A stretch of DNA of 64,000 bases. It comes from an uncultured Anaerolineaceae bacterium. Its GTDB lineage: Bacteria > Chloroflexota > Anaerolineae > JAAYZQ01. A model generated the notes under the pieces. It was not told the origin of the DNA and ran no database searches. It saw only the letters and a list, made by a program, of their open reading frames with translations. The position numbers were made by a program, and so were the translations under genes. This document shows positions 30,870 to 40,737 of the stretch, in pieces. The stretch covers positions 1,358-65,357 of the forward strand of contig CAZQKE010000089.1 of the NCBI GenBank assembly GCA_964593865.1, read 5' to 3'. Numbering within the stretch: the first letter of the stretch is position 1; every line of letters begins with the position of its first letter.

Positions 30870-32567
30870 GTGACAAAGAAGAAAAAAAAGAAGATGCAGT
30901 GGTACAAGATGGACCTGCATCTCCACACACCCGCTTCTGCCGATTGGCAAGAACCGGGGGTTGACTATTTGGACCTGCTCCACACAGCGGAGATGCGGGG
31001 GTTGGACATTATTGCCATCACCGACCACAACACCGTTGCCGGTTGCGCGGCATTGCAGGCGGACATTGAGAAACTTGATTTATTGGAACGATTGGGGAGA
31101 ATCCAGCCTGACGAACAGCGCAGATTGGACGAGTACCGGCGCATTGGGAACAAGATTTTGGTATTGCCGGGGTTTGAATTCACGGCCACATTGGGATTTC
31201 ATATTTTGGCCGTCTTCCCGCCCGAAACCTCGATCCGCCGATTGGAACATTTGCTGCTGGAGTTGAACGTACCGGCTTCCATGCTGGACGAAGGAGCGAC
31301 CGAAGTCGGGGCCACCGTTGATGTCCTGACCGCCTACCGCCTCATTGACGAAGCGGGGGGCCTGGTCATCGCCGCCCACGCCAACTCAAGCCACGGCGTG
31401 GCCTTACAGGGCCTCAACTTTGGCGGCCAGACGCGCATCGCCTACACCCAAGACCGTCACCTGCACGCCCTGGAAGTCACCGACCTGGAAAAGCGAGGCC
31501 GCCGGACGACCGCCTCCTTTTTCAGCGGGCGCAAACCGGAATACCCCCGGCGGATGCACTGCATCCAGGGATCCGACGCCCACCGCCGCAACCGCGATCC
31601 CGACGATCCCGGCCGTTTGGGGTGGGGCGACCGCGTGACCGAAATCCTGTTGCCGGAGCCGACCTTTGAGGCCATCAAGGCCGTCTTTTTGGGCGATGAC
31701 TTTTCCCGAACGCGGCCCTACCGCCCGGCCAAAGCCCCTTTTGACCACGTCCAAGCCGCCCGCGAAGAAGGCCCCAGCATCGTCCAAGCCTTCCACGAGA
31801 GCATGACCAAGCGCGGTGGGCGGCTCCATGCCATCCTGCGGGATGTGGTCGCCATGGCCAACACCAACGGCGGGACCATCTTTGTCGGCGTCAAGGCCGA
31901 TCCTAAGGCGATCCCGGCGGGCATCTCCGACCCGGAGGCGGCCGCCGCCACCCTCAAGGCCGAGATCCAACGCATGATCACCCCGCCCCTGGACGTAGAG
32001 ATCACAACGGTAGAAACCCATGGCCGTCCTGTGCTGCAGCTGAGCGTCCCCCTGGGCGAAGATGTACCCTACGCCCTGGACGGGACCAAAATCTACCTCC
32101 GCCAAGAGACCGAGACCCACCAGGCCATGCGCGACGAAATCGTCGCCCTGGTCCGCCGCGCCCTGCAGGGCAAAGAGCAGGATGCGGAAAAGGCCGAAGC
32201 AGAAGAGACGGCAGCCGGGGGCGTTGAACCACCGGGAACCGGCGTCCAAATCCTGGAAACCGTAGAGCGCAAGGGAACCCTTTACCACACCATGAAGAAC
32301 CTGCGCAACGGCAGCATCGTCCACAACGTGACCCGCTCCTCGGCCCGGAAGCTATGGCGATACGCCATCACCGAACATGAAAACAACCCGGTGCAGGAGG
32401 ACAAGGTCCGTTGGCAAGGCAACTTGGGGCTGTGGAAATCGTCGCGTCGGGCGGGAAAAGTGCGCTATGACCTGGTCCAGCGGATGCCCGACGGCCAGCT
32501 GCATGTCTACTATGGCGTCACGGAGGACGGCATAGACGGCCCCTGGCGCGTGTTTTTGGAAGAGTAA
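30870..32567 (+). CDS. PHP-domain (TrpH/YciV/RNase AM-like metal-dependent phosphoesterase) protein fused to an AlbA_2 (Schlafen-like) domain, with a poly-Lys N-terminus
   Basis: GTG start after a GTGAGG SD. N-terminus MTKKKKKKMQWYKMDLHLHTPAS...ITDHNT...PGFEF is a PHP fold. Middle region AILRDVVAMANTNGGTIFVGVKAD...YALDGTKIYLRQETETHQAM is AlbA_2. The C-terminal ~130 aa are unassigned. Confidence 0.7.
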   Translation: MTKKKKKKMQWYKMDLHLHTPASADWQEPGVDYLDLLHTAEMRGLDIIAITDHNTVAGCAALQADIEKLDLLERLGRIQPDEQRRLDEYRRIGNKILVLPGFEFTATLGFHILAVFPPETSIRRLEHLLLELNVPASMLDEGATEVGATVDVLTAYRLIDEAGGLVIAAHANSSHGVALQGLNFGGQTRIAYTQDRHLHALEVTDLEKRGRRTTASFFSGRKPEYPRRMHCIQGSDAHRRNRDPDDPGRLGWGDRVTEILLPEPTFEAIKAVFLGDDFSRTRPYRPAKAPFDHVQAAREEGPSIVQAFHESMTKRGGRLHAILRDVVAMANTNGGTIFVGVKADPKAIPAGISDPEAAAATLKAEIQRMITPPLDVEITTVETHGRPVLQLSVPLGEDVPYALDGTKIYLRQETETHQAMRDEIVALVRRALQGKEQDAEKAEAEETAAGGVEPPGTGVQILETVERKGTLYHTMKNLRNGSIVHNVTRSSARKLWRYAITEHENNPVQEDKVRWQGNLGLWKSSRRAGKVRYDLVQRMPDGQLHVYYGVTEDGIDGPWRVFLEE

Positions 32568-32834: not shown

Positions 32835-34145
32835 ATGACAACGAAATCATCTACCGATCCTTATGAGCAATACATCCCGGAGCCGAAATCTATCGAGGAA
32901 ACGGGCCTGACCATGGGCTTTATCGCCGATCTGGTGCTCAAACTGGTCTACTACAAGAGCGAGATGAGCAGCATGGAGATCGCCGAGGAACTGGCCCTGC
33001 CCTACGTGGGCATCATGGAAAAGGTTCTGGACTTTCTCAAGAGAGAAGAATACATAGAGGTCTCCGGTTCCAAGGGGTTCGGGGAAAGGGGATACCAATG
33101 GGTTATCACCGGCAAGGGCAGCGACCGGGCGGTCAAGGCCCTGGATCGGGATATGTACATCGGCCCGGCCCCCGTCCCCCTGGAGGCGTATAACCAGATG
33201 GTCCGGCGGCAGACCATAGGCCGTTTACGCGTCGGCCCGGCGGAGGTTCGTCAGGCCCTTTCCCACCTGGTGTTGAGTGGGGAGTTGGTCAACCGGATCG
33301 GCCCTGCGGTCAACTCCGGGCACTCCCTCTTCCTGTACGGGCCGCCGGGCAACGGCAAGACGGTCATCGCCAAGGGCATTATCCGGATGCTCAAAGGACA
33401 CGTCTACATTCCCTACGCCGTGACGGTGGACGGTCAGATCATCCGCGTCTTTGATGAGATGAATCACAAGCGGATCAAAGGGCCGCCGGAGCGGGAACGG
33501 CAGGAGGGCAGCGGCTTGGGCGCCCGGCGGTTGGACCCCCGTTGGGTGCGGATTCGTCGCCCGGAGATCGTCGTCGGCGGTGAGCTGACCATGCATAACC
33601 TGGACCTGATCTACGATCCCATCTCCAAAACCTACGAAGCCCCCCTGCAGATGAAGGCCAACAACGGGCTGTTCGTCATTGACGACTTTGGCCGCCAGCC
33701 GATGCGTCCCCAGGACCTGCTCAACCGCTGGATCGTCCCTTTGGAAATGCATATTGACTTTCTGACCCTGCAGACGGGCAAAAAGATAGAGATCCCCTTT
33801 GACGAACTGATCGTCTTTTCTACCAACCTGGACCCCAAAGACCTGGTGGATGATGCCTTCCTGCGGCGCATTCGCCACAAACTGCTGATTGATTACCCCG
33901 ATGAAAAGATGTTCTACCAGATCATGCAACAAGAATGCGCCCGCCGGAACATGGACCTACCGCCGGAGGCGTTTGTCTACCTGATCCAAAAACATTACAT
34001 CGCCGCCGACCGGCCCTTGCGCTCCTGCCATCCCCGCGACCTGTTGGACCAGATTGAAGATATTGCCTCCTATCTGGGAATCAAACCGGTCCTTTCCAAG
34101 CAGCTCATTGATGCTGCTTGCGAGAGCTACTTTGCCGAGGTCTGA
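32835..34145 (+). CDS. AAA+ ATPase (classical clade with SRH) with an N-terminal winged-helix-like domain; family not recognised
   Basis: Walker A GPPGNGKT. Walker B LFVIDDFG. Sensor-1/SRH FSTNLDPKDLVDDAFLRRIRH. N-terminal ~110 aa look like a winged-helix domain. Confidence 0.7.
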   Translation: MTTKSSTDPYEQYIPEPKSIEETGLTMGFIADLVLKLVYYKSEMSSMEIAEELALPYVGIMEKVLDFLKREEYIEVSGSKGFGERGYQWVITGKGSDRAVKALDRDMYIGPAPVPLEAYNQMVRRQTIGRLRVGPAEVRQALSHLVLSGELVNRIGPAVNSGHSLFLYGPPGNGKTVIAKGIIRMLKGHVYIPYAVTVDGQIIRVFDEMNHKRIKGPPERERQEGSGLGARRLDPRWVRIRRPEIVVGGELTMHNLDLIYDPISKTYEAPLQMKANNGLFVIDDFGRQPMRPQDLLNRWIVPLEMHIDFLTLQTGKKIEIPFDELIVFSTNLDPKDLVDDAFLRRIRHKLLIDYPDEKMFYQIMQQECARRNMDLPPEAFVYLIQKHYIAADRPLRSCHPRDLLDQIEDIASYLGIKPVLSKQLIDAACESYFAEV

Positions 34146-36115: not shown

Positions 36116-36161
36116 ACGCCCGGTCCGAGGCCTGGCCGGTCACCGACCGGCATCAGACTCC

Positions 36162-36374
36162 TCAAAAGCCGTTGAACCCCACCGTCACCTGCCCATCCCG
36201 GAGGATGGTAGGCACATGGCGGCGACCGCCGTTCAGCTCCAACATGCGCTTGAGGGCGTCGGGATCGGCTTTGACGTTGTACTCGGTGTAGCGGATGCCC
36301 TGCCGCCGGAGATCGGCTTTGGCCGCCGCGCAGTAGGGGCAGCCCGGCTTGGTAAAAATCGTCACTTCGCTCAT
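36162..36374 (-). CDS. Glutaredoxin-like protein (NrdH/Grx family, CPYC active site)
   Basis: MSEVTIFTKPGCPYCAAAK...TVGFNGF. 70 aa. Confidence 0.85.
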   Translation of the reverse strand: MSEVTIFTKPGCPYCAAAKADLRRQGIRYTEYNVKADPDALKRMLELNGGRRHVPTILRDGQVTVGFNGF

Positions 36375-36725
36375 CCGATACCTCCTTTACGTCACATTTT
36401 GCGTCTGAAACGGTCCTTTGGCCGTTCCGGCTGTGCATTCCGCGCCACAACGGCGGGGTGTGCCGAGGACCGGTCCCCGCGTTCCTCTGCCGCCTTTGGA
36501 CCGCGGGCCGGAGGTTGTGCGACGGCGTGCCGCCCGTGCATGGGTAACCCTCACCCTCCTGCAGAGTAGGGCCGGTGCGTTTGCCGTTCCCGCGCCGGTC
36601 GCGCCGCCGGGGGATGGCGTTTCCCTGCGGCTTCTGCCCCCGCGGTGTGCCGTCTTGGAAGTGCCTTGCCCTCTCCCACAGGCCCCCTGCAGGAGGGTGT
36701 CTACGGAGCATTCGGCAGGGGAATC

Positions 36726-37034
36726 TCAGGTATCTTGGGCGATCAGCTGCACGTTGGCGTCATCGGGCGGGCGGTTCTTCTCGATCCATGCCTCAAACCA
36801 TTCGGGATCCCACCAATGGATGAGGGCCGCTGCCCGGTCCGGTCGCTGGCTGAGGAGACTGTTGATGGCATACTTTTCCTGGTATGCTTTGTCCACCGCC
36901 TTGTCCACCTCGGTATGGCTTACCTTCCCGGCTTTCCACGCCTGGAAGGTTTCGCACAGGGGTTCCATAATTTTATGCCAGCGGTAGTTCCAATAATCGT
37001 CGGTCAGCTTCTCTTCCCACGTTTTGAGCGTCAT
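36726..37034 (-). CDS. Hypothetical Trp-rich small protein co-transcribed downstream of the HdrD-like gene
   Basis: 102 aa. Start 17 nt after the upstream stop. No motif recognised. Confidence 0.45.
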   Translation of the reverse strand: MTLKTWEEKLTDDYWNYRWHKIMEPLCETFQAWKAGKVSHTEVDKAVDKAYQEKYAINSLLSQRPDRAAALIHWWDPEWFEAWIEKNRPPDDANVQLIAQDT

Positions 37035-37050
37035 CTTGTCCCCCTTCTTA

Positions 37051-38301
37051 TCAGACGATCAGGGCATCGGCAATCAGGTCAATGACCCCTTTGATCTCAA
37101 TGTTCAGTTCGTAGTGTTTGTTCAGGTCTTCCAACTGGGCTTTGCAGTTCTCGCACGCGGTGACGACCCACTTGGCCTCGGTCTGGCGGATCTGTTGGAC
37201 TTTGGGCAGGCCACCCTCCATCCGCCGTTCGAATTTCTCATCGGCGGCGGCAATGAGACCGCCCCCACCACCACAGCACCAGTTCAGTTCACGGTTGGGC
37301 GTCATCTCCCGAAAGTCGGTGGCAACGGCATGGATCAGCGCCCGCGGCTCGTCGTACATGCCGGAGCTGCGCCCCAGGCTGCACGAATCGTGGAAGGTCA
37401 TGGGGGTATCAAAAAGATTCGGTTTGATCTTGATCCGCCCTTGTTTCAGGTATTCGTAAGTCAAGGGCACGATGTTAAGCCGCTCAATGCCGGCGATCTC
37501 ATCGCCGAACCAGCTTTCAAAGTAATTGAACAGAGTTCGGCTGGCGTGCCCGCATTCGGGATACACGATGGCTTTGACACCCAGTCGCTTGGCCTCGTCT
37601 ACGATCCACTGGGCTGCCTGTTTGGATTTGGCCCCATCCCCGACAAAGTAGGAATGGTTGGTGGCCGTGAACATGCTCAGCGTCCAGTTTTCCCCGGCGG
37701 CGAAAAAGATCTTGGCCGCCGGAATGATGGCGTGTTCGCCCACAAGGGGCACGTACAGCATGTCGGCCCCTTCCTTGCCCACGGGGATCGTGAGATCGGG
37801 GTGGAACTCGGCCTGCAATTGAGCCTCCAGCTCGCTGACCTGTTCCAGGAAAAAGTCCTTGACGAATTCTATGATCTCGCCTTTGGCCACCTCCGAATCG
37901 CCGATCTCGGCGATGATCTCCGGCCCGATCCCCTCCTTGAGGATGGCGTAGCGGGCCGTGCCGACCAGTAAGCCGGTATCCAGGTCAAAAGGACAGAAGA
38001 CGGCACAGCGTCGGCAACCGGTGCAATCCCACAGGGCCTTTTCCAACTGGGCGGCCAGAACGGCGTCGTTGTGGGGTAGCTCGTGGTACCAGTCCGCCAG
38101 CTTATTGTTGCCGGCCTTGCTGGCCTCCAGGGCCTGTTTGATCAAGACCATGCGCTGAGCCGGGATGTGAGCAGGGTCTTGGGAAACGGTGTAAAAGTGG
38201 CAGGCATCGGCGCAGGAGCCGCAGCGGACGCAAATGTCGGCATAGTATTGGATGGGCCGGTTGAAGCGGTCGCGCATTGTTTCGACAAATTGGTTCAACA
38301 T
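37051..38301 (-). CDS. HdrD/DsrK/GlpC-like iron-sulfur protein: two [4Fe-4S] ferredoxin motifs plus two CCG cysteine-rich domains
   Basis: CVRCGSCADAC and CTGCRRCAVFCP. CCG domains YPECGHA and NWCCGGGGG...ACENCK. About 416 aa, matching HdrD size. Confidence 0.75.
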   Translation of the reverse strand: MLNQFVETMRDRFNRPIQYYADICVRCGSCADACHFYTVSQDPAHIPAQRMVLIKQALEASKAGNNKLADWYHELPHNDAVLAAQLEKALWDCTGCRRCAVFCPFDLDTGLLVGTARYAILKEGIGPEIIAEIGDSEVAKGEIIEFVKDFFLEQVSELEAQLQAEFHPDLTIPVGKEGADMLYVPLVGEHAIIPAAKIFFAAGENWTLSMFTATNHSYFVGDGAKSKQAAQWIVDEAKRLGVKAIVYPECGHASRTLFNYFESWFGDEIAGIERLNIVPLTYEYLKQGRIKIKPNLFDTPMTFHDSCSLGRSSGMYDEPRALIHAVATDFREMTPNRELNWCCGGGGGLIAAADEKFERRMEGGLPKVQQIRQTEAKWVVTACENCKAQLEDLNKHYELNIEIKGVIDLIADALIV

Positions 38302-38314
38302 GGTGAGGACCTCC

Positions 38315-39028
38315 TTAGCTCCGCATAACCATTTTGTTCAAGCCCGCGCCAACGGTGTGGAGCAGTTTACCAAAGGGGAAGTAGATCATCAAAATCTGGA
38401 CCAGGGTAAAGTGCCAGATAAAGACAACACCGGCACTTTCCGGCACGGGTTGCCAGCTAAATTTGAACAACCCCTGCATGAATTCCCGGATCGCCTGTTG
38501 ATCCACTTCCAGGACCAGACGCATGTGGAGACCGGTGATGGCAATGCTCGCCAGCAGGACCAGGGCGAAATAGTCTTCCGGCGTGGAAAGGACCTTGATC
38601 GTCCCCCCCCAGCGGCGGAGGAAGAGGTAGATGAGGGGGATGAAAAAGAGCAACCCGGCGGTCATCCCGGCAATGGCCGAGAAGGTATGCGTTTCCTCTT
38701 CCCCCCAGCCGAGCAGATCCCACAGGAAGTAAAAATCGGTCACGGTGCGGATGTGGCCCAAGAACAGGAGCAAAAGCCCGACGTGCATGATAAACCCCCC
38801 GGCCCACAGCAGGCGGTTGACACGAAAGACGCTCCGCATGGTGAACATGTCCACCAGGGCGTCGGCAATGCGCCCCAGGCGGCTTTCCGGGCGGGGGTAG
38901 AGGGAAAGGTGGGCCGTCACAGGGGGCTTTTGGAACCAGTTTCGCAGCCGATAGATCAACCCACCGATCAGGATGATCACTGCCAGGTAGGGTGTGATAT
39001 AGGCCAGGATATACTCAACAGTTTCCAT
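38315..39028 (-). CDS. NarI/HdrE/DsrM-like integral membrane b-type cytochrome subunit (5 TM)
   Basis: Five TM helices with conserved His. Nitrate reductase gamma subunit-like fold. Adjacent to the HdrD-like gene. Confidence 0.7.
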   Translation of the reverse strand: METVEYILAYITPYLAVIILIGGLIYRLRNWFQKPPVTAHLSLYPRPESRLGRIADALVDMFTMRSVFRVNRLLWAGGFIMHVGLLLLFLGHIRTVTDFYFLWDLLGWGEEETHTFSAIAGMTAGLLFFIPLIYLFLRRWGGTIKVLSTPEDYFALVLLASIAITGLHMRLVLEVDQQAIREFMQGLFKFSWQPVPESAGVVFIWHFTLVQILMIYFPFGKLLHTVGAGLNKMVMRS

Positions 39029-39113
39029 ATTGCCTATCCTCCTTGATGTACCGTTTATGAAGGGAGGCCGGAAGCCGCGGTCGGGTTTGGCGCGGCTTCC
39101 GGCACGTGCCCGG

Positions 39114-39353
39114 CTACGCGGTACGGCGGATGTAGAACTTGAACACGCCTTCTTCCTTTTTGGCCTCCAGCAGCTCGTTGCCGGTGCTCTTGGCCCAGGC
39201 GGTGATGTCGGCCATAGAACCGGGATCGGTGGCCAGCACCTCCAAGATTTCGCCTACGGCGATCTTGGCGATCTCTTTCTTGGTTTTGACCACGGGCATC
39301 GGGCACTTGAGGCCCTTTGCGTCCAACGTCCTTGCAGGTGTGTATTCGCTCAT
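39114..39353 (-). CDS. tusA: TusA-like sulfur carrier protein
   Basis: CPMP motif (LKCPMPVVKTKKEI). 79 aa. Confidence 0.85.
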   Translation of the reverse strand: MSEYTPARTLDAKGLKCPMPVVKTKKEIAKIAVGEILEVLATDPGSMADITAWAKSTGNELLEAKKEEGVFKFYIRRTA

Positions 39354-39374
39354 CTTTGTCTCTCCTTTTTGTTT

Positions 39375-39851
39375 TTAGATGAATAGCTGAATGTCGGAAT
39401 CCTGTGCTTCGGCGATAAAGGTTGCCGCGCCGACCGCGTCCTCTACTTCGTCAATCAGATCCTCCTTGTCAATTTCCATGACCTCCATGCTCATCTGGCA
39501 GGCCAAGAGTTTCACATCCAGATCAATGGCCATCTGGCGCAGTTCGGGCAGGGTAGTCACGTTTTGGGCCTTCATCATCTTTTTGAACATCCAGCGCCCC
39601 ATGCCGCCAAAGTTCATCTTGCTGGGGCCGATGCCGTCAATGTCCTTCAGGAACATGCTCAACATGCGCCCGAAGAAACTTTTGCCCGTCCCCGTCTTCT
39701 TTTTGATGGCCTGCAGGCCCCAAAAGGTAAAGAACATGGTTGTTTCCATGTCCATTGCGGCAGCGGTGGTGGCGATGATAAAAGCACCCATCACCCGGTC
39801 CATGTCTCCGCTAAAGACGACGATGGAACATTTTTTCTTCTCCTCGCTCAT
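39375..39851 (-). CDS. DsrE/DsrF-like family protein (DsrE2-type)
   Basis: DsrE fold motifs: CSIVVFSGDMDRVMGAF..., conserved Cys in KLLACQMS. Confidence 0.75.
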   Translation of the reverse strand: MSEEKKKCSIVVFSGDMDRVMGAFIIATTAAAMDMETTMFFTFWGLQAIKKKTGTGKSFFGRMLSMFLKDIDGIGPSKMNFGGMGRWMFKKMMKAQNVTTLPELRQMAIDLDVKLLACQMSMEVMEIDKEDLIDEVEDAVGAATFIAEAQDSDIQLFI

Positions 39852-39865
39852 TCTTTCCTCCTTTG

Positions 39866-40630
39866 CTAGATTCTACTCATTTGGGCGATATGTTGCAGGC
39901 GGCTGAGCAGGTTCAGCCGTTCGCGTCCGATCTCCGCCAGGGTGTCTGCCACCCGCTGCAGCAAACGGGAGACGCGTCGGGGGTGGTCATCGGGCACGAC
40001 GTGTACCGTCTCGGCGGCGGCGTGCAGGGCTTGTTCCGAAAGGCCCAGGTCGGTCGCCAAGCGGGAAAGACGGACTTGCCAGGCCGATCGGTCGGCGGAT
40101 GGCGGTTGTGTGGTGAACTGGCAACAAGCGGCGATGGCAACTTGGTGCTCTTTGACGATGACCGCGGCACTGGCGCACAACAAACCGGCATGGCAAAAGT
40201 GGACTTTGGCATCCTGCGATTGTTTCCAGGAGATGGCACAGCGTCGTCGCCCCTCGGCGGTGGAGAGGATCAGGTCACAAAATTTGCCGGAGTTGCTGAT
40301 TTCGGCCATGGGGGAGCCTTCCGGATCGGTGATGATCGCAGCAACACCCAATGCCTCGGCGCAGATATTTTGAATGGCCTGGATGCAGGAGGGGGGCAAT
40401 GCTTGATCGGAGGGGAGTGTCCCCGCTGCGGTGGGGTCGGTGGAAGGTTGGCCGCCGGTGCGCTGCCCCTGGAGCCAACGCTCAATTTCCCGGCGCGAAA
40501 ACCGCCACTGACCGCCTACTTTGAAACCGTGTATCCGGCCGTCGTGCAACATGCGGTAGATGGTGATGCGGTCTACCTGCAGCAGGTCTTGCAGTTGTTT
40601 GGTTGTGAGTAGATCATCCACTGCCCACAC
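39866..40630 (-). CDS. Transcriptional regulator: N-terminal excisionase/MerR-type HTH plus C-terminal PocR-like Cys-containing sensory domain
   Basis: HTH LLTTKQLQDLLQVDRITIYRM. C-terminal conserved Cys (CIQAIQNICAE, FCDLI, CHAGLLCASAAV) resembles PocR. Confidence 0.6.
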   Translation of the reverse strand: MWAVDDLLTTKQLQDLLQVDRITIYRMLHDGRIHGFKVGGQWRFSRREIERWLQGQRTGGQPSTDPTAAGTLPSDQALPPSCIQAIQNICAEALGVAAIITDPEGSPMAEISNSGKFCDLILSTAEGRRRCAISWKQSQDAKVHFCHAGLLCASAAVIVKEHQVAIAACCQFTTQPPSADRSAWQVRLSRLATDLGLSEQALHAAAETVHVVPDDHPRRVSRLLQRVADTLAEIGRERLNLLSRLQHIAQMSRI

Positions 40631-40737
40631 CGGCTTTTCAAAGGTGTGGGCAGTGTATCACAGAAGGGGGAGGTTGTCAAATTTGTAATTGCATGTTGTA
40701 ACAAGATATAACAGAAGATACAGAAGGAGGCGTTTTG

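Follow-up and report, generated by a model that had tools for sequence, protein, structure and literature searches.

The analysed window, a 64,000-nucleotide stretch of DNA from an uncultured Anaerolineaceae bacterium, contains a six-gene operon that combines the sulfur carriers DsrE2 and TusA with a membrane cytochrome b, an iron-sulfur subunit, a regulator and a small protein (Table 1). As judged from its genes, the operon probably links protein-carried intracellular sulfur to the respiratory quinone pool. A core of four of these genes recurs across phyla, and a full-text literature search found no published description of it. An ORF check of the window confirmed the seven minus-strand genes listed in an earlier note on this DNA in position, strand and family, the family assignments being backed by Pfam and NCBIfam for all ORFs except that of the 102-aa protein. 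Genes one to six are separated by only 13–85 nt, and a gap of 351 nt lies between the gene of the 102-aa protein and that of the glutaredoxin.

Table 1. Genes and promoter elements of the locus (positions in the 64-kb window).
Feature	Position	Strand	Evidence or remark
HTH_17 + PocR regulator, 254 aa	39866..40630	-	Pfam; PocR 98 bits; first gene of the operon
DsrE2-type carrier, 158 aa	39375..39851	-	DrsE_2, PF13686, 1.8e-50
TusA-family carrier, 79 aa	39114..39353	-	PF01206, 2.3e-28
NarI/DsrM-like cytochrome b, 237 aa	38315..39028	-	Nitrate_red_gam, PF02665, 4.7e-20
CCG iron-sulfur subunit, 416 aa	37051..38301	-	Fer4_8 + CCG
Small Trp-rich protein, 102 aa	36726..37034	-	No Pfam or NCBIfam family
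Glutaredoxin	36162..36374	-	Family match; beyond the 351-nt gap
Sigma-70-type promoter	40652..40680	-	TTGACA, 17-nt spacer, TG-extended TACACT
Conserved 20-nt site TGTTATATCTTGTTACAACA	40694..40713	-	Just upstream of the -35 element

The conserved core consists of DsrE2, TusA, a NarI-like di-haem cytochrome b and a DsrK-like CCG protein. Among 65 loci representing individual species and offering enough upstream DNA, 63 carry the DsrE2, TusA and NarI genes directly upstream of the CCG gene, a recurrence which places the arrangement far beyond chance, and the order DsrE2-TusA-NarI-CCG is kept in 59 of the 63. These loci belong to Chloroflexota, Actinomycetota/Coriobacteriia, Desulfobacterota, Spirochaetota and Bacteroidota, Chitinophagales and Dehalococcoidales being included. 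The earlier note had named a lack of conservation of TusA and DsrE2 as neighbours among the outcomes that would refute its idea; this did not occur, as both accompany the CCG gene in several phyla. Across loci, the identity of each partner protein climbs with that of the CCG protein. One locus (L072) encodes related CCG and NarI proteins without the carriers. Neither in the window nor in four loci examined from other phyla are recognisable dsr, sox or hdrABC genes found beside the core, its flanks being made up of housekeeping genes; in one Anaerolineae relative, a haem-copper oxidase adjoins the module. Because of this gene context, the module looks self-contained and Dsr-independent.

Five hydrophobic segments were detected in the cytochrome b by a hydropathy scan, and together with the positive-inside rule they predict an N-out/C-in topology as in NarI. 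Three of its histidines, H82, H92 and H224, are invariant (79 of 79 sequences) and H206 is kept in 78 of 79; they align exactly to H56, H66, H205 and H187, respectively, of E. coli NarI. The check for haem-ligating histidines suggested in the earlier note therefore had a positive outcome, and the subunit is predicted to carry two haems b via these four ligands. Its score against the NCBIfam DsrM model is 100 bits (cut-off 300). None of the other operon proteins contains a hydrophobic segment which, given the topology of the cytochrome b, argues for a cytoplasmic catalytic side.

The CCG subunit combines two [4Fe-4S] motifs of the ferredoxin type with a single complete CCG motif, CX34CCGX39CXXC (C307, C342, C343, C383 and C386); Pfam likewise detects only one CCG domain. 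The N-terminal CCG lobe, over which HdrB and LutA align for about 250–290 columns, is degenerate in that its fold is kept together with one invariant cysteine (C250). The two CCG domains claimed previously hence exist at the level of fold, whereas only one of them has a complete motif. All 14 cluster cysteines are kept in 82–83 of 83 sequences. The best NCBIfam matches are TmcB, DsrK and HmcF (about 245, 244 and 217 bits), all of which stay below their cut-offs (735, 400 and 750). In a neighbour-joining tree of 47 sequences, built without a verified HdrD reference, the DsrE2/TusA-linked CCG proteins form a clade of their own (190 of 200 bootstraps), located inside the DsrK/HmcF/TmcB superfamily and distinct from true DsrK as well as from HmcF/TmcB-like proteins; one clade member is annotated as DsrK in a public record. 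The grouping with GlpC or LutA that would have refuted the earlier note did not occur, as both scores (33–45 bits with GlpC models) and tree place the protein far from either. By sequence and fold, the closest solved structure is EtfD of Mycobacterium smegmatis (9ojn), and LutA and HdrB also match by fold; in the AF2 model of the subunit, the ferredoxin domain is poor (pLDDT <50 for residues 1–55 and 84–147). Fused NarI-CCG proteins such as P0122 occur, which argues for a physical complex of cytochrome b and CCG subunit.

Both carriers have kept their active-site cysteines. Cys118 of DsrE2 is invariant in 69 of 69 orthologues, and Cys17 of TusA, located in the C-P-x-P motif, is present in 71 of 74. 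DsrE2 contains no hydrophobic segment according to the hydropathy scan, falls below the NCBIfam DsrE2 equivalog cut-off (99 versus 210) and has 3pnx (1.9e-26) and 2qs7 as nearest solved structures, the latter being the DsrE2B protein SSO1126 (PMC4175335). We therefore predict that it is of the soluble, DsrE2B-like type. The only DsrE2B studied in vitro, that of Metallosphaera cuprina, reacted with none of the sulfur compounds offered and showed no binding of TusA (PMC4175335). The TusA protein matches the E. coli TusA structures 1dcj and 3lvj, and also resembles YeeD/TsuB, the TusA-like component of a thiosulfate uptake system (8k1r).

Outside the Chloroflexota loci, neither the PocR regulator nor the 102-aa protein was found, and both are accessories. 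The latter is Trp-rich and helical with a single invariant cysteine (C27 in EPLCETFQxWKAG), and its gene starts 16 nt past the CCG gene. Tblastn and phmmer located it behind the CCG gene of 13 loci. It matches just 22 clusters among 5.8 billion proteins, all of them at least 55% identical, and its AF2 model (pLDDT 85.5, four helices) found no match in a PDB fold search. The glutaredoxin, by contrast with its earlier listing as a cluster member, is an unrelated neighbour that is conserved beside the cluster in no relative. Its ORF ends at 36153 if a TGA is read through; this codon is most likely read as selenocysteine, and the protein is probably a UXX-star selenoprotein.

The regulator, encoded 14 nt upstream of the DsrE2 gene, combines an N-terminal HTH_17 domain (excisionase/MerR-like; 1.4e-15) with a Cys-rich PocR sensory domain (6.2e-28) in which C82, C118, C131, C146 and H147 are kept in 6–7 of 7 sequences. 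Its assignment as PocR equivalog was rejected (29 bits; NCBIfam cut-off 500). A PocR regulator heads the cluster only in Chloroflexota loci such as this one; tblastn and phmmer both located it in six loci, and precomputed Pfam annotations add the contigs L083 and L085. ArsR-type or MarR-type regulators occupy the upstream position in other lineages. The regulators thus come from three families that are not related, all of them with conserved cysteines, which would fit thiol- or persulfide-based sensing. The promoter matches the consensus at 10 of 12 positions, and an alignment of seven upstream regions of relatives showed that TTGACA and the extended -10 element are conserved. The 20-nt site upstream of it is unique in the window even when three mismatches are allowed (0 expected from shuffles) and occurs at the corresponding place ahead of the PocR genes of L003, L026, L083 and L085. 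The HTH_17-PocR regulator that the operon encodes may bind to this candidate site.

Our preferred reading, held tentatively and with a little less than even confidence, is that the operon's product is an HdrDE/DsrMK-type S-S oxidoreductase which sits in the membrane and is coupled to quinone. In place of DsrC or CoM/CoB, TusA and DsrE2 would most likely serve as its thiol substrates. By analogy with the action of DsrMK on DsrC, menaquinol would most likely reduce sulfane sulfur or an S-S bridge on these carriers. The sulfur may sit on TusA Cys17 and/or DsrE2 Cys118 as a persulfide or, analogous to the DsrC trisulfide, in a TusA-S(n)-DsrE2 bridge, and the loaded carrier would dock at the putative CCG-type non-cubane [4Fe-4S] site (C307, C342, C343, C383 and C386, with C250). 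The cytochrome b would take up electrons from menaquinol at its outer face and pass them via the distal haem (H92/H206), then the proximal one (H82/H224), to two cubane [4Fe-4S] clusters and on to the CCG site, where cleavage of the S-S bond would release H2S and regenerate the carrier thiols. The conserved promoter, with the 20-nt site upstream of it, is expected to drive expression, which would be controlled by a Cys-rich regulator that differs between lineages, and in Chloroflexota the 102-aa protein may serve as an extra subunit or carrier. HdrDE operates in the reductive direction. At about -74 mV for menaquinol and about -270 mV for S0/HS-, reduction of sulfane sulfur by menaquinol is uphill under standard conditions. 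The sequence data fit the reverse direction equally well.

It is possible, if somewhat unlikely, that the complex instead oxidises carrier thiols or sulfide and passes the electrons to menaquinone, for example by converting TusA-SH and HS- to TusA-SSH or by forming a carrier trisulfide, and would thereby represent a cytoplasmic, protein-mediated counterpart of sulfide:quinone oxidoreductase. Such a role has been proposed for DsrMK(J) in sulfur oxidisers, it is downhill towards menaquinone by textbook potentials, and the sequence evidence for the preferred reading counts equally for it. The haem-copper oxidase adjoining one module points in the same direction. By contrast, many carriers of the module are Coriobacteriia/Anaerosomatales, Dehalococcoidales and Desulfobacterales MAGs, largely anaerobic lineages that would have little use for extra quinol, and the flanks examined show no linked enzyme that would oxidise sulfane sulfur further downstream. 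In a model for cable bacteria, DsrMKJ forms the DsrC trisulfide while reducing quinone (PMC13293266), and EtfD, the closest solved structure, belongs to a protein named ETF:(methyl)menaquinone oxidoreductase which reduces quinone (PMC11094781); both support this direction. EtfD, with ETF as its partner, may also be taken to suggest that TusA and DsrE2 are not substrates at all: they would feed sulfur into the assembly of cofactors or clusters or serve a separate pathway, while the cytochrome b/CCG pair would act on a disulfide of low molecular weight or, as EtfD does, on a soluble redox partner. We consider this rather unlikely. Biosynthetic roles of TusA are well known (PMC4175335) and locus L072 lacks the carriers; yet in 63 of 65 loci the four genes occur together across phyla with very short gaps, and they diverge in step, and etfAB was not seen in the flanks examined. 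Moreover, to our knowledge, other DsrK/HdrD-family complexes need no dedicated TusA/DsrE2 genes.

Quite unlikely in our view is that the carriers hold a thiosulfonate derived from thiosulfate or tetrathionate, and that the complex reductively cleaves carrier-S-SO3- or the resulting mixed disulfide, so that thiosulfate or tetrathionate would be processed in the cytoplasm at the expense of quinol. In M. cuprina, tetrathionate, but no persulfide donor, converts TusA and DsrE3A to Cys-S-thiosulfonates (PMC4175335), and the likeness of TusA to YeeD/TsuB fits this chemistry; yet M. cuprina DsrE2B did not react with tetrathionate (PMC4175335), and genes for a YeeE/YedE transporter or DsrE3A are absent among the recurrent neighbour families and the flanks examined. 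That the operon simply encodes the canonical DsrMK of this organism, with its partners DsrC and DsrAB encoded at other genomic sites, is highly improbable. DsrK and DsrM are among the top NCBIfam matches and a clade member bears the name DsrK, but both scores are far under the curated cut-offs, proteins which do reach the DsrK cut-off fall outside the clade, and recognisable dsr genes are missing beside the operon in the window and the other loci examined. In addition, the module occurs in Leptospiraceae, Chitinophagales and, beside a haem-copper oxidase, Anaerolineae, none of which we know as sulfite or sulfate reducers.

With DsrMK, the core of DsrMKJOP (Hme complex), the module shares a NarI-type di-haem cytochrome b, a cytoplasmic two-[4Fe-4S]/CCG subunit and, as proposed here, a substrate in which sulfur bridges cysteines of a small sulfur-relay protein. 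It differs in clade and model scores, and in having TusA and DsrE2 as linked small proteins instead of DsrC, with dsrJOP, dsrC and dsrAB not nearby. HdrDE, the methanophenazine-dependent CoM-S-S-CoB heterodisulfide reductase of Methanosarcina, likewise pairs a cytochrome b with a CCG iron-sulfur subunit, and quinol-type oxidation outside with disulfide reduction inside would be common to both. HdrD, however, has two complete CCG motifs whereas the bacterial protein described here has one, and the neighbours are protein carriers and nothing related to coenzyme thiols. TmcBC and HmcEF, modules of transmembrane complexes of Desulfovibrio, show the same pairing and contribute top-scoring NCBIfam models, but lie on a separate tree branch and score far below cut-off, and their multihaem cytochrome c subunits are not encoded here. 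EtfD/EMO exchanges electrons with menaquinone through a cytochrome b and an HdrD-like Fe-S/CCG domain; it is a single fused chain partnering ETF, unlike the module, whose conserved partners are sulfur carriers. Genetic linkage of TusA and DsrE2 to a heterodisulfide-reductase-type enzyme is also known from the rhd-tusA-dsrE2 and tusA-dsrE2 sets of rDsr or sHdr systems (PMC4175335, PMC11094781). Those sets go with soluble sHdr (HdrAB1B2C1C2) and lipoate-binding proteins or with DsrEFH/DsrC/DsrAB, whereas here the enzyme is a membrane DsrMK-type pair, DsrE2 is of the soluble DsrE2B-like kind, and rhodanese, LbpA and hdrA genes were not seen nearby. Finally, the YTD cluster of sulfur disproportionators (yedE-tusA-dsrE plus conserved hypothetical genes) combines TusA with a DsrE-family protein in anaerobic, sulfur-cycling Desulfobacterota (PMC12998232); it has the YedE transporter and no redox enzyme, whereas the module has a quinone-linked Fe-S/haem enzyme and no transporter. 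If our preferred reading of a quinol-dependent reductase acting on TusA and DsrE2 is true, the module would let the cell dispose of its intracellular sulfane sulfur, or respire it, independently of oxygen.

The seven open reading frames that the earlier note had placed on the minus strand of the window were all present, and each assignment was upheld by profile searches (table). Gaps among the first six genes measure 13–85 nt, and 351 nt precede the glutaredoxin gene; this spacer gave no Rfam match at E ≤1, and terminator-like sites are not in excess there. The G+C content of the window is about 60%. The cluster is flanked by housekeeping genes encoding Lon protease, a MoCF_biosynth-domain protein, an amidohydrolase, GlmS, a CobW/HypB-family GTPase and MetRS. 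The CCG iron-sulfur protein is identical to the protein P0298, encoded on a metagenome-assembled contig of 109.8 kb, and other members of the 90% cluster of P0298 are labelled Anaerolineae. Elsewhere in the window, a 565-aa protein with a Schlafen/AlbA_2 domain (30870–32567, plus strand) is followed by a 436-aa protein (32835–34145, plus strand), for which Pfam gave no match at E ≤1e-5 and which contains a Walker-A-like GPPGNGKT motif; the two might form a defence-type or regulatory unit.

Genes of the cluster, with positions in the window
Product	Position	Strand	Length
HTH_17 + PocR-domain regulator	39866–40630	-	254 aa
DrsE_2 protein (PF13686, 1.8e-50)	39375–39851	-	158 aa
TusA	39114–39353	-	79 aa
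Nitrate_red_gam cytochrome b	38315–39028	-	237 aa
Fer4 + CCG iron-sulfur protein	37051–38301	-	416 aa
Protein without family	36726–37034	-	102 aa
Glutaredoxin (as annotated)	36162–36374	-	70 aa

Four of these genes form a conserved core. A scan with an alignment of the CCG protein against one genome per GTDB species yielded 80 loci, which were then searched with the seven window proteins (tblastn, phmmer). Upstream sequence amounts to 1.8 kb or more in 65 loci, and 63 of them have genes for DsrE2, TusA and a NarI-like protein directly upstream of the CCG gene and on the same strand, the order being DsrE2-TusA-NarI-CCG in 59 of the 63 and DsrE2-NarI-TusA-CCG in three. Core loci occur in Anaerolineae and other Chloroflexota, Dehalococcoidales, Coriobacteriia and other Actinomycetota, Desulfobacterota, Spirochaetota/Leptospiraceae and Chitinophagales; also among the loci is one on a Heimdallarchaeota contig, truncated just upstream. 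Identity of the CCG proteins to that of the window ranges from 36 to 74%, and partner identity climbs with it (Spearman coefficients of 0.65 for DsrE2, 0.45 for NarI and 0.26 for TusA). From this parallel rise the four core genes appear to travel together. Neighbours are unrelated in four annotated loci of other phyla (Feo, exonuclease VII, a group II intron, an aldo-keto reductase), and a haem-copper oxidase adjoins the module in one relative. Given the conserved synteny and the unrelated neighbours across phyla, we regard the core as a self-contained four-gene module. The genes around the operon, in the window and in the related loci examined, included no recognisable dsrC, dsrAB or dsrJOP, and a tblastn search of PLSDB for occurrence on plasmids gave no match.

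Some loci depart from this picture in detail. The Desulfobacterales bin36 chromosome (CP070746.1) carries two DsrE2-TusA-NarI-CCG copies (loci L019 and L067), about 6.2 Mb apart by coordinates, one of which is adjoined by a group II intron reverse transcriptase gene. Locus L072 (5022–10341) is the sole clade locus without DsrE2 or TusA; there, a NarI-like gene is surrounded by three CCG-protein paralogues. An apparent DsrE2-TusA fusion in L018 and a NarI-CCG fusion in L021 turned out to be artefacts of ORF calling, since the frames differ.

The CCG protein has no hydrophobic segment and contains two ferredoxin-type CX2CX2CX3C motifs (C24/27/30/34 and C93/96/99/103) as well as one complete CCG motif, C307-X34-C342C343G-X39-C383-X2-C386. 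The cysteines of these motifs, together with C250, are kept in 82–83 of 83 sequences. With these features and a Pfam CCG score of 51 bits, the protein falls within the CCG-domain heterodisulfide-reductase superfamily (HdrB/HdrD/DsrK/TmcB/HmcF), in which the paired ferredoxin-type motifs mark the D/K-type subunits. The two CCG domains claimed in the earlier note are borne out at the level of fold, where two lobes are discernible, but not at that of motifs, where a single Pfam CCG domain is found and the N-terminal lobe keeps only C250. Support for two lobes comes from the fold search: over 250–290 columns (about 280 for HdrB), the AF2 model, reliable for residues 150–416, can be aligned with HdrB and LutA, both of which have two CCG domains, and its best match is Mycobacterium smegmatis EtfD. 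A direct hhalign comparison of the N and C lobes placed C250 against C383 and was not significant (E = 0.067). Based on the fold alignment and the single complete motif, the protein keeps the two-lobe fold with a full cluster-binding motif in its C-terminal lobe only. HdrD proper has two complete CCG motifs (ten cysteines), as in HdrB; by motif count the CCG protein, with one, is thus set apart from HdrD.

The highest NCBIfam scores of the CCG protein were obtained with TmcB (245.5 bits), DsrK (244.1 bits against a cut-off of 400; equivalog NF045796) and HmcF (216.8 bits), all well below the curated cut-offs and far above the scores with GlpC, GlcF and lactate-utilisation models. Grouping with GlpC or LutA homologs, which would have spoken against the reading in the earlier note, did not occur: GlpC models gave 33–45 bits against cut-offs of about 279 and GlcF 37.5 against 333, and the likeness to LutA is confined to the shared fold. 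In a neighbour-joining tree of twenty 50%-cluster representatives labelled by NCBIfam and 26 locus proteins, the DsrE2/TusA-linked CCG proteins form one clade (190 of 200 bootstraps) and DsrK-labelled proteins a separate one (186 of 200), with HmcF/TmcB-like proteins outside both. P0131, P0138 and P0165, three related proteins that reach the DsrK cut-off, are placed in a clade other than that of the window protein. By sequence, the linked CCG proteins are a distinct subfamily that is neither DsrK nor GlpC nor LutA. Public labels of its members read '(Fe-S)-binding protein' or 'Fe-S oxidoreductase', and in one case 'DsrK (=HmeD)'.

The cytochrome b is of the NarI type (PF02665; 72.6 bits against a Pfam cut-off of 22.9), with five hydrophobic segments and an N-out/C-in topology predicted by the positive-inside rule. 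Haem-ligating histidines, of which a di-haem cytochrome of this type has four on transmembrane helices 2 and 5 and whose presence the earlier note had left to be checked, are conserved: H82, H92 and H224 are invariant in 79 of 79 sequences and H206 is found in 78. In the alignment with E. coli NarI they correspond to its haem ligands H56 (H82), H66 (H92), H187 (H206) and H205 (H224), which makes H92/H206 the predicted outer and H82/H224 the predicted inner haem pair. The DsrM model NF038037 gave 100 bits with partial model coverage, short of the cut-off of 300. Fused cytochrome b–CCG subunit proteins exist (for example P0122), which suggests a physical complex between the two subunits.

DsrE2 is a soluble protein with an invariant Cys118 (69 of 69 sequences). 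It scores 171 bits with Pfam DrsE_2 (PF13686) and 99.4 bits with the equivalog NF047629 (cut-off 210); the closest structures are 3pnx and 2qs7, of the soluble DsrE2B type (PMC4175335). TusA carries Cys17 in a C-P-M-P motif, the cysteine being kept in 71 of 74 sequences. As its score was 98.3 bits with PF01206 and 59.7 with the E. coli-type TusA equivalog (cut-off 78), it is better viewed as a family member than as a TusA orthologue. TusA and DsrE2 are known to occur as a pair beside soluble sHdr or rDsr systems, and also in the YTD cluster (PMC4175335, PMC11094781, PMC12998232). No report of such a pair beside a membrane DsrMK-type pair was found in the full texts accessible to the search.

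Regulation of the module differs between lineages. The gene at the head of the window operon encodes, as anticipated in the earlier note, a protein with a PocR domain (PF10114, 98 bits) next to an HTH_17 DNA-binding domain; a gene of this kind heads the cluster only in Chloroflexota loci. With 29 bits against a cut-off of 500 for the PocR equivalog NF047788, the protein is by sequence a PocR-domain protein and not PocR. In Actinomycetota, Dehalococcoidales and some Chloroflexota an ArsR/HTH_5 gene with a conserved C-x-H-x3-C motif precedes DsrE2 (18 loci), and in Desulfobacterota this place is taken by a MarR gene, with QCC and RC cysteines conserved (23 loci). Reactive sulfur is suggested as inducer by the presence of cysteine-rich regulators from three unrelated families. 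Upstream of the window regulator gene we recognized a promoter consisting of TTGACA, a 17-nt spacer and a TG-extended TACACT. Conserved in seven aligned upstream regions of relatives are the -35 element, the extended -10 element and a 20-nt site, TGTTATATCTTGTTACAACA, located just upstream of the -35 element. The window contains this site only once (0 matches expected), and it occurs at the same position in the related loci L003, L026, L083 and L085. It is a plausible candidate binding site for the operon's own regulator. A 16-nt inverted repeat with 94% complementarity and an 11-nt spacer (40616–40631/40643–40658) extends across the -10 element and the regulator's GTG start codon, and was set aside as an operator because it is not conserved in relatives. 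In the close relative L085 (8505–12192, plus strand) a second HTH_17-PocR gene lies just downstream and precedes a gene for a 955-aa FAD_binding_4 + Fer4 + 2xCCG protein, a glycolate/D-lactate-oxidase-like fusion; the 20-nt site is absent there. PocR-domain regulators may repeatedly control CCG-type oxidoreductases in this lineage.

Genes downstream of the core are likewise lineage-specific. Like the PocR-domain regulator, the 102-aa protein was found only in loci of Chloroflexota, which have CCG identities of 61% or more, and its family comprises 22 clusters among 5.8 billion proteins. It has one invariant cysteine within the motif EPLCETFQxWKAG and a confident, helical AF2 model, for which a Foldseek search of the PDB gave no match below E = 3. 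A role as substitute for DsrC, the small sulfur-relay protein substrate of DsrMK, was rejected because a DsrC-like C-terminal cysteine pair is missing. In 14 of the 23 Desulfobacterota MarR loci the CCG gene is directly followed by a gene for a FadL/TodX-type outer-membrane channel (PF03349, about 430 aa). It is co-oriented and lies some 1.4 kb beyond the start of the CCG gene in L035, L041, L042, L052, L053, L055, L058–L060, L062, L066, L075 and L081, and on the other strand in L080. As channels of this type carry hydrophobic molecules, it is conceivable that the gene is linked to uptake of a hydrophobic substrate, be it elemental sulfur or some other.

The glutaredoxin could not be retained as a partner of the cluster, as had been supposed, for the two occur side by side in no contig other than one identical to the window. 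Its reading frame ends in ...FNGF-TGA-GGA-GTC-TGA, where read-through of the TGA annotated as stop (36162–36164, minus strand) gives U-G-V-stop and a gene spanning 36153–36374 (minus strand). Members of UXX-star family 1 (NF041114) are defined by a score of at least 72 bits and Sec or Cys three residues before the stop codon. The protein scores 75.5 bits as annotated and 82.6 with read-through, which covers the whole model (1–70 of 70) and places U at that position; the Uxx_star NCBIfam model likewise scores higher with read-through (111.5 bits, full length). A stable hairpin (-31.6 kcal/mol) that starts at the TGA could be a bacterial SECIS element. Thus, the gene probably encodes a UXX-star selenoprotein with TGA predicted as selenocysteine.

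By homology, the core module would work like DsrMK or HdrDE. To our knowledge, substrates have been assigned to no other membrane heterodisulfide reductases, the numerous genome-encoded DsrMK-like paralogues included. As in DsrMK and HdrDE, the cytochrome b would take part in electron exchange with the quinone pool on the outer side of the membrane, and two haems and two cubane clusters would connect it to the cytoplasmic CCG cluster, where an S–S bond would be made or broken. TusA and DsrE2 are the only conserved candidates for a thiol partner, and we therefore propose as substrate a persulfide of either protein or, by analogy with the DsrC trisulfide, a TusA-S(n)-DsrE2 bridge. That the module is kept across phyla, away from recognisable dsr genes in the flanks examined, leads us to the hypothesis that the carrier pair replaces DsrC as protein substrate. 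A version in which TusA and DsrE2 are not substrates is less likely, as is one in which they act as thiosulfonate carriers. The same holds for a canonical DsrMK. By score, the module proteins fall outside DsrK, DsrM, TmcB and HmcF alike.

We favour the reductive direction, in which quinol would be consumed and H2S released. Most module-bearing genomes come from lineages known as largely anaerobic, and this, together with the cysteine-rich regulators and the described role of DsrMKJOP, argues for it. Electrons pass from the menaquinone pool to DsrC via DsrMKJOP (PMC13490349), and the title of Barbosa et al. 2024, as cited in PMC13293266, names the same direction. The main rival is the same complex run in reverse, with oxidation of thiols or sulfide feeding menaquinone; it fits the sequence data equally well and, judged by textbook potentials, is thermodynamically easier. 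Taken as a whole, the reading of the module as a widespread, unrecognised respiratory or detoxifying DsrC-independent menaquinol:protein-persulfide (or carrier-trisulfide) oxidoreductase is a tentative one, and we hold it to be rather unlikely than probable.

The proposal gives DsrE2, and with it one family of orphan DsrMK-like complexes, a concrete function that can be put to the test. If true, it would assign a function to DsrE2, whose role is called unclear in the sulfur-oxidation literature (PMC11094781). Metagenome matches to 'DsrK' would have to be read differently, at least one member of the clade being publicly labelled as such. A new route would join intracellular sulfane sulfur and the quinone pool, a direct and possibly energy-conserving link in the cytoplasm of bacteria not regarded as sulfur specialists, such as Anaerolineae, Coriobacteriia, Leptospiraceae and Dehalococcoidia, with consequences for the cryptic sulfur cycling of lineages that abound in sediments and the subsurface.
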